From Vicinamibacterales bacterium (GTDB lineage: Bacteria > Acidobacteriota > Vicinamibacteria > Vicinamibacterales > UBA2999), in assembly GCA_035575715.1 (NCBI GenBank), contig DATLXN010000045.1, forward strand, positions 74,523 through 138,522: a stretch of DNA of 64,000 nucleotides, in the 5' to 3' direction. The notes beneath the pieces are model-generated. The model ran no database searches and had not been told where the DNA came from. It saw only the letters and a list, made by a program, of their open reading frames with translations. The position numbers were made by a program, and so were the translations under genes. Shown one piece after another: positions 3,797-11,742 of the stretch (position 1 is its first letter; every line of letters starts with the position of its first letter).

Positions 3797-4882
3797 ATGC
3801 CCACCGCGAGTGTTCCCGAGACCGCATTAACCCGCGCCCGCACCGAGCTCGACGCATGGGTACGGGAGTTGATGCAGTGGCATTTCAGCCCTGACACGGG
3901 ATGCCCGTTCTGGCTGCAGTGGGCCGAGCAGGCCGGTTGGGATCCGCGTCGCGAGGTCAAGACCTACGACGACATCGACCGTTTCGGATCATTTCAGGAC
4001 CAATGGCTGCGCGGCGGGCCGGTACGACGGTGGGTGCCGAAAGGTTACGCCGATCGGCCGATCTATACCTTTGAAACCGGCGGCAGCACCGGCGTGCCGA
4101 AGTCGCGCATCAACATTGACGACTTCCGCATCGACTACGAAATGTTCAGCCGCACTTTGCCGGATGAATATTTTCCCAAAGGTGCCGACTGGCTGCAGGT
4201 CGGGCCCAGCGGTCCGCGTCGGCTGCGTCTCGCCATCGAGCACCTCGCCCAACATCGCGGCGGCATCTGCTTTGCCGTAGACCTCGATCCGCGCTGGGTG
4301 ATCAAACTGATCAAGTGGGGCGAGCTGGAAATGATGGAGGCTTATAAACGCCACGTCATCGATCAGGCGCTGACGCTGATCAAGGCGCATGACACCATTC
4401 AGTGCCTGTTTACCACACCGAAGTTGCTGGAAGCGCTGTGCGAACGCATTTCGCTGAATCAAGCCGGCATCACCGGGGTGTTCTGCGGCGGCACTGAAAT
4501 GACGCCGCAGTTTCATCGCTTTGCCGTCGAAGAATTAATGGAAGGCGCCTACTTCGCACCGACCTACGGCAACACGCTGATGGGTCTGGCCGCACACAAG
4601 GCACCAGAGCCCCAGGACAACTGGGCGATCATCTACTTCCCGCCCGCGCCGCGCGCGATGATCGAAGTGGTCGATCCCGACAAGCCGACCCAGGTAGTGG
4701 GCTACGGAAAGACGGGTCGCGTGCGACTGACGACGCTGACCAAAGAGTTTTTCATGCCGCGCTTCCTCGAACGTGACGAAGCCGAACGCGAGCCGCCGTG
4801 CACAAAATATCCGTGGGACGGCGTACGCAACGTGCGGCCATTCTCGCGCTTCGCCAAGGCGGTGGTTGAGGGAGTGTATTGA
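3797..4882 (+). CDS. Adenylate-forming enzyme, PaaK/CapK/LuxE-like (acyl-AMP ligase fold, short form)
   Basis: 361 aa. FETGGSTGVPK resembles the ANL P-loop (SSGTTG.P). YGNTLMG and GKTGRVRL resemble later ANL core motifs. The size matches LuxE-type acyl-protein synthetases. Family assignment is tentative. Confidence 0.6.
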   Translation: MPTASVPETALTRARTELDAWVRELMQWHFSPDTGCPFWLQWAEQAGWDPRREVKTYDDIDRFGSFQDQWLRGGPVRRWVPKGYADRPIYTFETGGSTGVPKSRINIDDFRIDYEMFSRTLPDEYFPKGADWLQVGPSGPRRLRLAIEHLAQHRGGICFAVDLDPRWVIKLIKWGELEMMEAYKRHVIDQALTLIKAHDTIQCLFTTPKLLEALCERISLNQAGITGVFCGGTEMTPQFHRFAVEELMEGAYFAPTYGNTLMGLAAHKAPEPQDNWAIIYFPPAPRAMIEVVDPDKPTQVVGYGKTGRVRLTTLTKEFFMPRFLERDEAEREPPCTKYPWDGVRNVRPFSRFAKAVVEGVY

Positions 4883-6315
4883 TGATCCACATTCCCATCC
4901 TCCGCTGGGGCGTCCTTTACCGCAGCGTCGACCGTTCGATCATTCCGCACTTCCGGACCCGCGAACCGTTTGTCGAGATGAGCCAGGCCAACGTCGGCAT
5001 CATCCGCCGCGACCTGCTGCGCCAGGGCGAGCAGCGTGACAAGCTCGCCAGAGTCCCGGTCGCCGATCTCGTCGCGATGTCCAAGCAAGCGGCCGAACAC
5101 TTTCTCAACGACACATTGCCGCTCGACCCGTCGGAGTCGACGACCCAGACGCCGCAGGATTACATCGAGCAGGTCTCGGCAACGACCGGCATGCCGTATG
5201 CCAGTGTCCGCCGCAACATGCTGAAGGTGCACGGCGTCCTCAGCCGCGTCGACGAAGTCCTCGACGGACTCACGCGCGGACTCGATTTGTCAGTGCTGGA
5301 CGATGGCTATGGCGAGGCCGGCGGACAGATGCTCAGTTTTTTCGCGCGCGGCGATTCGCTCGGCGTCGTCTTGCCCAGCAACTCGCCGGGCGTGCATTCG
5401 CTCTGGGCGCCGGCCACGGTGCTGAAGATGCCGCTGGTGCTGAAGCCTGGCAGCGCCGAGCCGTGGACGCCGCTGCGGATGATTCACGCGTGGAGCAAAG
5501 CCGGCGCGCCGTCGGAAGCGTTTGCCTACTATCCCGCCGATCATGCCGGCGGCCACGAGATCCTCCGCTCGTCCGGTCGTGGCATGGTCTTCGGTGATGT
5601 CGGTTCGACCAAGCGCTGGAAGGCGGATCCGCGCGTCGAAGTGCACGGGCCTGGTTTCAGTAAGGTGGTGATCGGCCCCGATGTCGCGGACGACTGGGAA
5701 CGGCATCTCGATGTGATCGTCGAGTCGATCTCTAACAACGGCGGCCGCTCGTGCGTCAACGCGTCGGGCGTGTGGGTGACCAGGCACGGCGATAAGATCG
5801 CCGCGGCGCTGGCCGAGCGGCTGGCGCAGATTACGCCGCGAGAGGCCGATGACCCCGACGCCGTGCTGGCACCATTTGCCGACCCGTCGACGGCGCAACG
5901 CATCTCCGCGACCATCGACCAGGACCTGCGCGGCGAAGCAGGCGCAGCGCGCGATGTGTCGGCCGAACAGCGCGGGCCGGATCGCGTCGTCACGGTCAAC
6001 GGCGGTAGCTACTTGCTGCCGACCGTGATCCGCTGCGACGCCTCGCACCCGCTGGCCAATCGCGAATATCTCTTCCCCTACGCGAGCGTCGTCGAGGTGG
6101 CAGCCGAGCAACTGCCCGCCGCACTCGGGCCATCGCTGGTGGTCACCGTCGTGTCGAACGACGAGCGCTTCCGTGAACGCTTCGTCGCGTCGCCCCACGT
6201 CGATCGCCTGAACCTCGGGCCGATCTCGACGACCCAGATCGGGTGGGACCAGCCGCATGAAGGCAATCTGTTCGAGCACCTCTATGCGCGGCGAGCGATT
6301 CAAAGGCTGGCCTGA
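4882..6315 (+). CDS. Aldehyde-dehydrogenase-superfamily protein (possibly LuxC-like acyl reductase)
   Basis: VVLPSNSPG...LKPGS (NAD(P) site region), GPGFSKVVI and NNGGRSCVNASGVWV (catalytic-Cys region). ATG 4882 overlaps the upstream TGA (TGATG). GAGGGAG lies 8 nt upstream. Confidence 0.75.
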   Translation: MIHIPILRWGVLYRSVDRSIIPHFRTREPFVEMSQANVGIIRRDLLRQGEQRDKLARVPVADLVAMSKQAAEHFLNDTLPLDPSESTTQTPQDYIEQVSATTGMPYASVRRNMLKVHGVLSRVDEVLDGLTRGLDLSVLDDGYGEAGGQMLSFFARGDSLGVVLPSNSPGVHSLWAPATVLKMPLVLKPGSAEPWTPLRMIHAWSKAGAPSEAFAYYPADHAGGHEILRSSGRGMVFGDVGSTKRWKADPRVEVHGPGFSKVVIGPDVADDWERHLDVIVESISNNGGRSCVNASGVWVTRHGDKIAAALAERLAQITPREADDPDAVLAPFADPSTAQRISATIDQDLRGEAGAARDVSAEQRGPDRVVTVNGGSYLLPTVIRCDASHPLANREYLFPYASVVEVAAEQLPAALGPSLVVTVVSNDERFRERFVASPHVDRLNLGPISTTQIGWDQPHEGNLFEHLYARRAIQRLA

Positions 6316-11300: not shown

Positions 11301-11742
11301 CTTCGGCATGGACATCGTCGATACGCGCGCGCGCTTGGCGGCATATCACCAGGTCGAGAACACCTATCTCTCGACGTTCCAATCGCTCGGCGCCCTCGGA
11401 CTGCTGCTCGGGACGCTGGGCCTCGCCGCGGTCCTTGCGCGCAATGTGCTCGAACGCCGGCGAGAATTGGGGCTGCTCGGAGCGGTTGGTTTCACCAACC
11501 GTCACCTGCGCACGATGATCGCCAGCGAAAGCATTTTGCTAGTTGCGACGGGGTTGGTCATCGGGAGCGCCGCGGCTATCCTGGCAGTGGCGCCGGCGGT
11601 CATCCAGCGCAGTAATGCATTGCCCTGGGCAAGTCTCGCGCTGCTGTTGCTGGCGGTCTTGATCACCGGCGTCCTGGCATCTCTCGCCGCAGTGCGTTTG
11701 GCCACCGCGACACCGGTGGTTGCTGCGATCAAGGGGGAGTAA
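8347..11742 (+). CDS. Large ABC transporter permease with two FtsX-type membrane modules
   Basis: ATG 8347 overlaps the ATPase stop (ATGA). N-terminal TM (ALVICGIAIAVAVLAG). Two FtsX-like 3-4 TM blocks, near aa 520-650 and at the C-terminus. The ORF-track start 7969 is rejected because it is an Arg/Pro-rich read-through of the ATPase gene. Confidence 0.85.
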   Translation: MNGLVAASLRHFRALHALVICGIAIAVAVLAGALLVGASVRGSLRDLALARLGATELVATSPTFFRDALAQELTGGDIQAVAPLVAMTGTVTHDDSGRIASHVQVFGIDDRFLAFHGRPAGAPSSRDSWISPALATELGADADDNVMLRIAKPSDVPLSTLQGRREDVSERVRLTVGRVVDRAALGEFSLLPSQGPALTMFVALSRLQQDLDAEGRVNVLLLRMAAPAADPRDDLRAAQEALSRRATLDDLGLKVRRDGRGATVILESRSGLLPDSAVASAVHAATQIGRPATGVLTYLANAIRANGREIPYSLIAAIDLPGPPLGTEVGVRAPSGTEVGEESPVSPSRGTEVGVRVPVGTEVGAGGGERPILLNAWAAEDLGVTAGDRIDVDYFLWTDSAGLQTRSTSFTYAGVVPMTGPGGDATLTPEYPGITDAADVTNWDPPFPVDMRRVRKTDEDYWDTWRAAPKAFIPLAVGQQLWASPFGKLSSLRTHATEAWPAAGAFDIASLLPIRPVRAEAMAAAAGTTDFGEYFVYFSFFLVVSALLLAGMFFALTVEQRARELGLLIAVGFTPRDVRRTLLREAAVLITIGSTLGVAGAIGYAALIVYGLGTWWVGAVGTTALRVHIDPMLLGAGVLGAALAAAIALTLSMRRLAKRTTRALLTAGFESSHEASPRVSRRIAAAALALSLLLMALAGSGMASQVAAFFGAGALLLVAGCAVFAAWLRSRAAPTEQPSMIRFGAAYARWRPARSVLSTALIAFACFVIVSVGAFRRDPAAEQLTRDGGTGGFLLMGESVAPLLHNPNTPGGRDELLLGGYPLLEQTSIARWRLRPGDEASCLTLYQPANPRIVAPEDAFLQQGRFSFAGSVAETPEERANPWLLLNRQFADGAVAAIADQTSLTYVFHLKVGDDLVLPADNGPPIRLRIVATLADSVLQSELIIGEGPFIRLFPHHEGYRLWLIEGPEAQAPALTALLEDSLSDFGMDIVDTRARLAAYHQVENTYLSTFQSLGALGLLLGTLGLAAVLARNVLERRRELGLLGAVGFTNRHLRTMIASESILLVATGLVIGSAAAILAVAPAVIQRSNALPWASLALLLLAVLITGVLASLAAVRLATATPVVAAIKGE
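9321..9437 (+). repeat. Four in-frame copies of GGGGACGGAGGTCGG (peptide GTEVG) inside the permease gene
   Basis: Copies at 9321, 9351, 9393 and 9423 (spacing 30/42/30 nt). Translation: GTEVGVRAPSGTEVGEESPVSPSRGTEVGVRVPVGTEVGAGGG. Confidence 0.85.

Follow-up and report, generated by a model that had tools for sequence, protein, structure and literature searches.

In the LuxE/LuxC system a carboxylic acid is activated with ATP, the acyl group is linked to a cysteine of a protein of the aldehyde dehydrogenase (ALDH) superfamily, and hydride transfer gives the aldehyde. The GriC/GriD pair of the Streptomyces griseus grixazone pathway and the EhpF/EhpG pair of the Pantoea D-alanylgriseoluteic acid pathway each consist of an ANL enzyme of about 360 amino acids (aa) followed by an ALDH-like protein of about 460-480 aa, and EhpF is an atypical ANL enzyme that has no C-terminal domain. 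DevBCA-HgdD is a MacB/FtsX-family ABC system linked to a glycosyltransferase, and its envelope glycolipid is built on a reduced acyl chain. We describe here a block of five genes, g1 through g5, in a 64,000-nucleotide stretch of DNA from a Vicinamibacterales bacterium (positions 74,523 to 138,522 of contig DATLXN010000045.1, assembly GCA_035575715.1; this whole stretch is called the window below), and compare it with these systems.

GriC makes an acyl-AMP, which is then reduced by GriD to give the aldehyde, according to the part of a paper on the 3-amino-4-hydroxybenzoate (3,4-AHBA) pathway that cites Suzuki et al. (PMC10179220). Type VII ABC transporters act at the membrane's periplasmic side by mechanotransmission with a dedicated partner and transport no cargo across it (PMC12646458). 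E. coli has four such systems, with EnvC, LolA, MacA-TolC and TesA as partners, and the permease YbbP has ten transmembrane (TM) helices with periplasmic domains after TM1 and TM7 (PMC12646458). Our reading of the new locus, to which we give a probability of roughly one half, is that two units are joined in one Acidobacteriota operon, an acid reductase (g1 and g2) that would supply or modify the aglycone for a machine made of a GT4 glycosyltransferase, an ABC transporter and a β-propeller protein. The genes of the block and their predicted products are the following.

3797-4882, + strand: g1, 361 aa, EhpF/GriC-type adenylating enzyme carrying FETGGSTGVPK
4882-6315, + strand: g2, 477 aa from the ATG at 4882, EhpG/GriD-type ALDH-like protein
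6403-7704, + strand: g3, starting at the ATG at 6403, CxxC-type retaining GT4 glycosyltransferase
7679-8350, + strand: g4, 223 aa, 26-nt overlap with g3, LolD/YbbA-like ABC ATPase
8347-11742, + strand: g5, 1131 aa, ATGA overlap with g4, 10-helix type VII ABC permease

The five-gene block and its reductase pair

The window sequence and its open reading frame (ORF) listing contain the five tightly packed plus-strand ORFs at the positions given in an earlier note on this DNA, and all of the joins described there, TGATG, an 87-bp spacer at 6316-6402, the 26-nt overlap and ATGA, were found. The ATG of g2 overlaps the g1 stop codon by one base; the ORF lister starts g2 at a TTG at 4879, from which g2 residues are numbered here. 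The g3 start is placed at the ATG at 6403, the Met at which conservation among its homologues sets in. The g5 protein also occurs, with 100% identity, in a Vicinamibacterales metagenome-assembled genome (MAG), which puts the window in Acidobacteriota. This packing exceeds chance, because relatives repeat the gene order with short spacers (medians of 31, 15, 56 and -1 nt, in order from g1 to g5).

In a scan of one genome per species g1 had 593 relatives or more, and nearly all of the best 80 carry Acidobacteriota labels; the lineages include Vicinamibacteria, Blastocatellia/Pyrinomonadaceae, Chloracidobacterium, Bryobacterales and other Terriglobia. Synteny was counted in the 44 related loci that have at least 8.5 kb on both sides. 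Full-length g1 through g5 lie within 10 kb in 31 of the 44, and the gene order is conserved across Acidobacteriota, as the earlier note's reading required; in a 32nd locus (L045) all five are present with g3 split. The block is contiguous and canonical in 25 loci, g1 is divergent from g2-g5 in three, and three others have all five genes with insertions or rearrangement. The partial blocks are g1-g3 only (4/44), g1 with a truncated g2 and then g3 onward (2/44), and g1 alone (6/44). Among rearrangements that keep the genes linked are divergence of g1, the order g1-g3-g2, and insertion of a propeller gene at the g1-g2 or the g3-g4 junction. Median identities to the window proteins are 76% for g1, 60% for g2, 54% for g3, 62% for g4 and 44% for g5. 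In some Terriglobia (L081 and L084) only the C-terminal third of g2 is left after g1 (11101-11226 in L081, 11170-11610 in L084). Between this remnant and g3-g5 lie, in this order, genes for an Fe-alcohol dehydrogenase, a propeller, a radical-SAM enzyme of HemN/HutW type, a flavoenzyme resembling halogenases and geranylgeranyl reductases, and a solute symporter, the downstream genes extending to about 20900. We note that four loci (L007, L008, L009 and L051) come from MAGs labelled Bifidobacteriaceae, Clostridia, Verrucomicrobiia and Acidimicrobiia, with g1 at 77-80% identity and the whole block on those of the contigs that are long enough; these contigs are probably misbinned Acidobacteriota DNA.

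Compared with solved structures, the g1 protein matches EhpF (3HGU, 3L2K) end to end (E 2e-47). Its residues 17-361 align with EhpF 19-366, it ends where EhpF ends, and it comprises only the ANL N-terminal domain, without the C-terminal domain; it is 34% identical to the EhpF-like protein of an ehp cluster. In the Pfam scan at E<=0.01 only AMP-binding was matched (24 bits, under the cut-off). The TGGSTGVPK motif is present, P-loop residues E93, G95, G96, T98, G99 and P101 are invariant in homologues, and identity across Acidobacteriota classes is 69-90%. No LuxE was found in the same Pfam scan, and g1 has neither a PaaK model match nor an AMP-binding_C_2 domain, so that the CapK/PaaK alternative once raised for this gene is set aside.

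The g2 protein likewise matches a single Pfam family at E<=0.01, Aldedh (53 bits, cut-off 23), and LuxC was not found in that scan. Its best NCBIfam ALDH match reaches 31 bits where the cut-off is 638, the families matched including HpaE, BADH, MMSDH and SSADH, and an ordinary metabolic ALDH was rejected because g2 falls far under every NCBIfam ALDH cut-off. The best solved ALDH in a PDB search has an E value of only 9e-8. Far closer than any solved ALDH are two proteins encoded next to EhpF-like genes, to which g2 was compared pairwise by BLASTP: the ALDH of an enterobacterial ehp-type cluster (26% identity, E 2e-35) and that of the haloarchaeon Halalkalicoccus (28% identity, E 1e-33). Conservation of its residues was counted over 58 Acidobacteriota homologues: the catalytic C292, the oxyanion N168, E396 and G239 are each present in 58/58, F399 in 57/58 and the cofactor-site lysine K189 in 55/58. 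All 58 have a histidine (His256) at the place that a HMMER alignment equates with Glu268, the general base of ALDHs, and the EhpG-like protein has a glutamine there. The absence of Glu268 argues against an ordinary aldehyde-oxidising ALDH, and the missing hydrolytic base is in keeping with an enzyme that would reduce its thioester rather than hydrolyse it.

The genes g1 and g2 are adjacent and on the same strand in 53 related loci. On an enterobacterial plasmid with an ehp-type phenazine cluster an EhpF-like gene is followed by one for an "aldehyde dehydrogenase family protein", a layout of EhpF-like and ALDH genes that was named ehpF/ehpG in a Proteus study. Such pairing of an adenylating enzyme with an ALDH-like partner is seen in L003 and L005. 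In Streptomyces, g1 homologues bear the annotations "arylcarboxylate reductase" or "phenazine biosynthesis protein" and lie in aromatic-acid clusters (naphthoate via futalosine-type enzymes, isochorismate, polyketide synthase).

By these sequence comparisons g1 and g2 are an EhpF/EhpG-type pair, of the same kind as GriC/GriD, and not LuxE/LuxC. The g1 enzyme is predicted to convert a carboxylate and ATP to an acyl-AMP, and g2 is predicted to be an acyl-enzyme (Cys) reductase that forms the aldehyde with NAD(P)H, the acid to acyl-AMP to aldehyde chemistry of the two known pairs. By family precedent the acid is probably aromatic; a fatty-acid substrate is not favoured, because the characterised relatives of g1 and g2 act on aromatic acids. 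There are differences from GriCD and EhpFG. Identity is only 34-37% for g1 and 26-28% for g2, g2 has His rather than Gln at the Glu268 position, and instead of lying in a cluster for an aromatic secondary metabolite, g1 and g2 form a highly conserved pair that occurs phylum-wide, tied to a glycosyltransferase/ABC module. LuxE/LuxC differ further from the block, which has no LuxD-type transferase and no Lux profile matches, and whose g1 and g2 relatives use aromatic acids. The earlier note had called gene 1 adenylate-forming and gene 2 a member of the ALDH superfamily with an intact catalytic Cys, and the match to GriC/GriD and EhpF/EhpG agrees. None of the outcomes that it named as refuting its reading was seen, either in the profile searches with g1 and g2 or in the gene order of relatives. 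Its activate-and-reduce logic survives as the chemistry of a two-protein pair; its LuxE/LuxC identity does not, the family being GriCD/EhpFG.

The glycosyltransferase, ATPase, permease and propeller

The g3 protein scores above cut-off with Pfam Glycos_transf_1 (81 bits) and Glyco_transf_4 (46 bits), as it does with three further GT4-type glycosyltransferase domain models besides Glycos_transf_1; NCBIfam scores are all far under their cut-offs. The top PDB folds for its AlphaFold2 (AF2) model (mean predicted local distance difference test score, pLDDT, 82) are BshA, sucrose-phosphate synthase and MshA, with E values of 4e-18 to 2e-17, TM-scores up to 0.81 and 16-18% identity, together with GlgM, and PimA ranks lower. 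The acceptors of these four enzymes are small anionic compounds. Usual GT4 enzymes have a Gly-rich loop at the place where g3 has the N-terminal CxxC motif FCGSCLRDN, which is near-invariant in 64 Acidobacteriota homologues. Relatives of g3 form 948 clusters (50% identity) at E<=1e-30, and of the 150 best representatives 130 carry CxxC, the remaining 20 being mostly truncated at the N terminus. In the homologues compared the residues E337, K339, G340 and E345 are invariant, which we read as an E-x7-E motif. Thus g3 is predicted, by profiles and model alike, to be a retaining GT4 enzyme of GT-B fold that belongs to a large CxxC-marked subfamily, in agreement with its earlier assignment. It shares the retaining GT-B architecture of BshA, MshA and sucrose-phosphate synthase, the closest folds to its model, and differs from them in the CxxC motif and in a conserved stretch of about 90 residues that is inserted into its N-terminal domain and modelled with low confidence.

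Two single representatives are putative fusions of CxxC GT4 proteins, P0305 (759 aa) with a Prenyltrans alpha-alpha toroid domain and P0292 (741 aa) with the C-terminal part of a sodium:solute symporter. The former, together with the geranylgeranyl-reductase-like FAD enzyme of the variant loci, is the only hint of a hopanoid or terpenoid link. The BshA/MshA-like fold, together with CxxC, also led us to consider a low-molecular-weight thiol pathway, and ether or membrane-spanning lipid synthesis was likewise considered.

The g4 protein matches Pfam ABC_tran (122 bits) and, in NCBIfam, LolD (239 bits, cut-off 308), YbbA (194 bits) and DevA (152 bits). In g5 there are two Pfam FtsX matches and a weak MacB_PCD match, and the 13 overlapping segments of a hydropathy scan were read as ten TM helices, with periplasmic domains at about residues 37-539 (after TM1, about 500 aa) and 775-1012 (after TM7, about 240 aa). 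Its AF2 model has a pLDDT of 80 and a predicted TM-score (pTM) of 0.73, and the top Foldseek match is YbbP (9GE6, E 9e-14, 947 columns), followed by BceB, LolE/C and MacB. From these profiles and this model g5 is assigned as a 10-helix type VII permease of YbbP/BceB architecture; profiles and fold thus agree with the ABC ATPase and double-FtsX permease recognised earlier. In g5 the sequence GTEVG is repeated four times at about 9316-9444 (aa 324-366), a disordered insert (pLDDT <50) in the first periplasmic domain that the Planctomycete orthologue does not have.

Among the closest described relatives of this transporter is YbbAP-TesA of E. coli (PDB 9GE6-9GE8), with which it shares ten TM helices, periplasmic domains between TM1 and TM2 and between TM7 and TM8, a LolD/YbbA-like ATPase, a dedicated periplasmic partner (putative here) and the lack of a membrane-fusion protein. 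It differs in that g5 is 14% identical, with a first periplasmic domain of about 500 aa, in that the putative partner is a BamB-like propeller and not a GDSL hydrolase, and in the GT4 that is attached genetically, and in Planctomycetota by fusion. DevBCA-HgdD differs in other ways; the block has no DevB-type adaptor or TolC-like gene, its acid reductase is of another family, and g5 is a fused 10-helix permease whereas DevC has four helices. An HlyD-type membrane-fusion adaptor gene was not found in the block, in the flanking genes scanned or among recurrent neighbours, and a tripartite efflux pump (MacAB-TolC, DevBCA) was rejected on that ground. Also rejected were an Acidobacterial duplicated orphan permease (ADOP, TIGR03434; g5 scores 39 bits, cut-off 622, in the last FtsX module only) and an anti-phage defence system, since PADLOC matched no component of the block beyond the generic ABC/AAA similarity of g4.

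The following genes lie downstream of g5.

15040-16314, + strand: secreted BamB/PQQ_2-like β-propeller, 424 aa, signal peptide; Pfam PQQ_2 87 bits, NCBIfam BamB weak
16409-16858, + strand: small membrane protein, 149 aa, five hydrophobic segments, 4-5 predicted helices
16950-20090, - strand: CarboxypepD_reg plus OMP_b-brl_4 barrel, 1046 aa, TonB-dependent-receptor-like; OMP_b-brl_4 543 bits

Propeller homologues occur in 42 of 84 related loci (53 of these 84 are at least 15 kb long), which makes the propeller the commonest Acidobacteriota neighbour of the block. It lies between g1 and g2 in L016 and L034 and between g3 and g4 in L078, and in the closest relative, L006, a propeller-type match begins about 150 nt past g5. 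The 15040-16314 propeller is a probable periplasmic partner of g4/g5, as its gene neighbourhood, the sole support, suggests. In the window a gap of 3.3 kb (11743-15039) separates it from g5; its G+C content is slightly lower, 0.58-0.61 at 11800-14400. This gap holds a fragment-like 145-aa hexapeptide-repeat (LbH) ORF on the minus strand (11774-12211), an ORF without family match (12314-13174) and a KaiC-like ATPase gene (14112-15026).

Outside Acidobacteriota, a search with one fusion protein found more than 55 clusters in which a g4-like ABC ATPase is fused C-terminally to a CxxC GT4, of 650-750 residues. The named fusions are from Tepidisphaeraceae and the related unfused GT4s from Phycisphaerales and Humisphaera, all Planctomycetota; g3 is 42% identical to the GT4 part of one fusion, P0279. 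A permease of about 1120 residues follows the fusion in three of the four contigs looked up, and on the P0279 contig there is no permease within 10 kb of it. The permease in L092 shares 34% of its residues with g5 in a full-length comparison. In L091 the fusion and permease are followed by the same radical-SAM/flavoenzyme pair as in L081 and L084, a 4HBT thioesterase, a PaaK-like ligase (187-207 bits, with AMP-binding_C_2) and a propeller. A metagenome scan with a second fusion clade gave 80 loci, and counts were made over the 33 of at least 12 kb. A PQQ370-like BamB-type propeller is present in 30 of these, mostly directly 5' of the GT4 or between GT4 and ATPase, and 28 carry ATPase and permease; no g1, g2, PaaK-like, radical-SAM or symporter homologue lies nearby in any of the 33. 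In this clade homologues of the window propeller, 47-51% identical, stand directly after a g5 homologue that is only 30-33% identical.

The invariant core is therefore the CxxC GT4, the propeller, the ATPase and the 10-helix permease, and g1/g2 are an Acidobacteriota addition. Since g3-g5 exist without g1/g2 in other phyla, g1/g2 are not the general source of the module's substrate. That two kinds of acid-activating enzyme have been recruited beside the module favours a real functional link, though the core works without them. In the paper collection that we searched there was no description of the g3-g5 module and nothing on a type VII ABC system with a glycosyltransferase and a propeller; for "arylcarboxylate reductase" and the gene combination in Acidobacteria nothing relevant was found.

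Intergenic repeats, the g1 start and flanking genes

Two features of the noncoding DNA of the block that the earlier note mentions are the following.

3785-3790, + strand: TAGAAT, -10-like hexamer 6 nt 5' of the g1 ATG, no Shine-Dalgarno (SD) sequence
6317-6397, no strand: long imperfect hairpin of CTCTGYGN 8-mers, repetitive extragenic palindrome (REP)-like insertion in the g2-g3 spacer

Of 77 related loci, 32 have a TANNNT hexamer with its end 5-14 nt from the start of g1, on the upstream side, with a peak at 6-12 nt (the background upstream of g1 is about 1 per position), and an SD-like core precedes g1 in only 12. The leaderless transcript proposed by the earlier note gains support from these counts, and the upstream sequences suggest that the g1 mRNA is leaderless or has a very short leader. 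A promoter scan found no full-consensus sigma-70 site, and an Rfam search of window positions 1-22000 matched no known RNA or riboswitch. The palindrome GAACAATTGTTC, which had been placed at 3732-3743 and offered as an operator, lies at 3722-3733. We rejected the operator: the coordinate was off by 10, the window holds 26 perfect 12-nt palindromes, which makes this one statistically ordinary, and GAACAATTGTTC is not present upstream of g1 in L006.

The hairpin-forming repeat in the 87-bp spacer is real; the spacer folds with -51.1 kcal/mol (z = -6.0), and 0 of 200 shuffles were equally stable. The CTCTGYGN motif has 6 matches in the window where 0.23 are expected, and period-8 arrays of it lie at 3733-3757, 6363-6385 and 16359-16379. 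Arrays of about three such octamers, often as inverted pairs that give long hairpins, occur between genes in several Acidobacteriota genomes (L014 4769-4827, L022 1000-1022, L045 14990-15004, L050 18560-18574, L059 2560-2643 and 14799-14881). Where the window has 87 nt between g2 and g3, the median over 50 relatives is 15 nt, and because of this short median the spacer is, as judged from sequence, an insertion of a dispersed REP-like element and not a block-specific signal. A terminator was rejected, as no T-run follows the stem and the terminator scan called none there, and so was a block-specific regulator, as the same 8-mer arrays are found at unrelated places between genes in other loci. 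These genomes seem prone to short-period repeats in their intergenic DNA, and further short tandem arrays, of 7-8-nt units, adjoin the block. TAAGTGC is repeated 3.9 times in tandem at 11740-11766, beginning at the g5 stop codon, and upstream of g1 in relatives there are three copies of GGAACTTT and four of GGGAGTT (L006 ~9940-9975; L034 ~9925-9955).

The small membrane protein at 16409-16858 has no Pfam, NCBIfam or PADLOC match. Its homologues are found in 18 related loci, at about 68% identity and usually beside g5 or the propeller; one guess is a flippase. The OMP_b-brl_4 barrel is a looser neighbour that adjoins the small membrane protein in 11 related loci, and a barrel of this type also lies beside the GT4-ABC fusion in L091. 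Adjoining the barrel, an MFS transporter gene at 20167-21489 has "aromatic acid/H+ symporter" as its best family (100 bits, far under the cut-off), and its homologues accompany the block in only 3 loci. The genes upstream of the block, at 44-3687, do not recur beside it in relatives; they encode a receiver-SpoIIE phosphatase, a response regulator of LytTR type, and a molybdoenzyme resembling sulfite oxidase with a c-type cytochrome.

How the two units may work together

If reductase and machine are joined as we propose, g1 would adenylate a carboxylate, probably aromatic, and the acyl group would pass to Cys292 of g2 for NAD(P)H reduction to the aldehyde; both steps are suggested by homology to the characterised pair and by conserved residues. 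The GT4, docked on the ATPase at the inner membrane face as the gene fusions suggest, would glycosylate a membrane-associated acceptor, which in Acidobacteriota may be derived from the g1/g2 aldehyde or decorated by it. With ATP, g4/g5 might then draw the product out of the outer leaflet or pass it on to the propeller, the enlarged periplasmic domains of g5 acting by mechanotransmission on a membrane-embedded glycoconjugate or on the propeller. What the comparisons show are the protein families, the conservation of catalytic residues, the folds, the synteny and the fusions; we infer the acceptor or substrate, the chemical coupling between the two units, any further reduction to the alcohol, flipping, the cargo and the direction of transport. 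Of the activate, reduce, glycosylate and export sequence in the earlier note, the acid reductase pair, the GT4 and the ABC system are supported; a fatty-acid substrate is not favoured. Export by a MacB/Lol-type transporter needs rethinking, as type VII systems move nothing across the membrane (PMC12646458).

Several observations weigh against the joining of the two units. The module is found without an adenylating enzyme or ALDH in 33/33 long loci of the distant clade and in two Planctomycete loci. Conversely, 6/44 loci have g1 without g2-g5, and in three or more of these an Fe-alcohol dehydrogenase gene comes after it; four loci have g1-g3 with no g4/g5 nearby. A glycosyltransferase needs a hydroxyl, and the block encodes no alcohol-forming step and no flippase. 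A type VII transporter moves no cargo across the membrane (PMC12646458), and the closest folds to g3 use small soluble acceptors (malate, sugar phosphates), not lipids. We hold only tentatively the broader proposal that g3-g4-g5 and the propeller are an undescribed type VII class that spans Acidobacteriota, Planctomycetota and one or more further clades, with a CxxC GT4 on the ATPase, fused to it in many lineages, and a BamB-like propeller as periplasmic partner, whose substrate g1/g2 would feed or decorate in Acidobacteriota.

The alternative that survives best, though we think it rather unlikely, is that two unrelated functions share a promoter region, reduction of an imported aromatic acid (for catabolism, detoxification or a small secondary product) and an independent envelope process, with g3 never using what g1/g2 make. 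It would account for the completeness of g3-g5 and propeller without g1/g2 in other phyla, for g1 alone or with an Fe-alcohol dehydrogenase in some Terriglobia and Bryobacterales, for the Halalkalicoccus pair beside a solute symporter and an IclR regulator, and for the aromatic-acid/H+ symporter-like MFS gene at 20167-21489. It does not readily explain why the linkage has outlasted several independent rearrangements across deeply diverged classes, why the median g2-g3 spacer is only 15 nt and propeller genes stand between g1 and g2 in L016 and L034, or why a different acid-activating enzyme lies beside the GT4-ABC fusion in L091.

It is less probable still that g4/g5 are an FtsEX-like regulator that switches one or more propellers by signal or force, with the GT4 sensing or modifying the ATPase and g1/g2 as accessories. 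The named type VII systems each have a dedicated partner, and FtsEX moves no cargo (PMC12646458); the propeller, moreover, is the most constant neighbour, at 47-51% identity where g5 has only 30-33%, and the GT4 is fused to the ATPase itself. However, residues of the GT4 C-terminal domain are kept, including the putative E-x7-E, which points to a working transferase; no enzymatic activity that could be regulated is known for PQQ_2/BamB-like propellers, and it would go unexplained why acid-activating enzymes were recruited.

Very improbable is a reading along the lines of the earlier note, in which a LuxE/LuxC-like fatty aldehyde or alcohol is glycosylated and exported as an envelope glycolipid in the manner of heterocyst glycolipids and DevBCA, for although its acyl-AMP, Cys thioester and hydride chemistry is that of LuxE/LuxC, g4 and g5 match DevA (152 bits) and DevC (19 bits) weakly, and a lipid cargo would suit an outer-leaflet YbbP/LolCDE-like permease, there is no LuxE or LuxC profile match at E<=0.01, every characterised or context-annotated g1 relative lies in a phenazine, 3,4-AHBA, naphthoate or isochorismate pathway, and the block has no DevB-like membrane-fusion protein and no alcohol-forming reductase.

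The component families of the proposed two-unit operon are known; what would be new is a type VII ABC system with a glycosyltransferase on its ATPase and a propeller as partner, and g1/g2 are new members of the GriCD/EhpFG family. Reductases of the GriC/GriD type are also of practical interest to biocatalysis, as they are small, consist of two parts and offer an alternative to the large carboxylic acid reductases in use there, and the roughly 76% identity of g1 across Acidobacteriota classes suggests strong constraint. Soils and sediments are rich in Acidobacteriota and Planctomycetota, two poorly characterised phyla whose envelopes are largely unexplored. If the proposal is true, the module would be a further type VII class, with a propeller partner and a glycosyltransferase-bearing ATPase as its two new traits, and it would provide a new link between cytoplasmic biosynthesis and periplasmic mechanics, in which glycosyl transfer is coupled to ATP-driven work.

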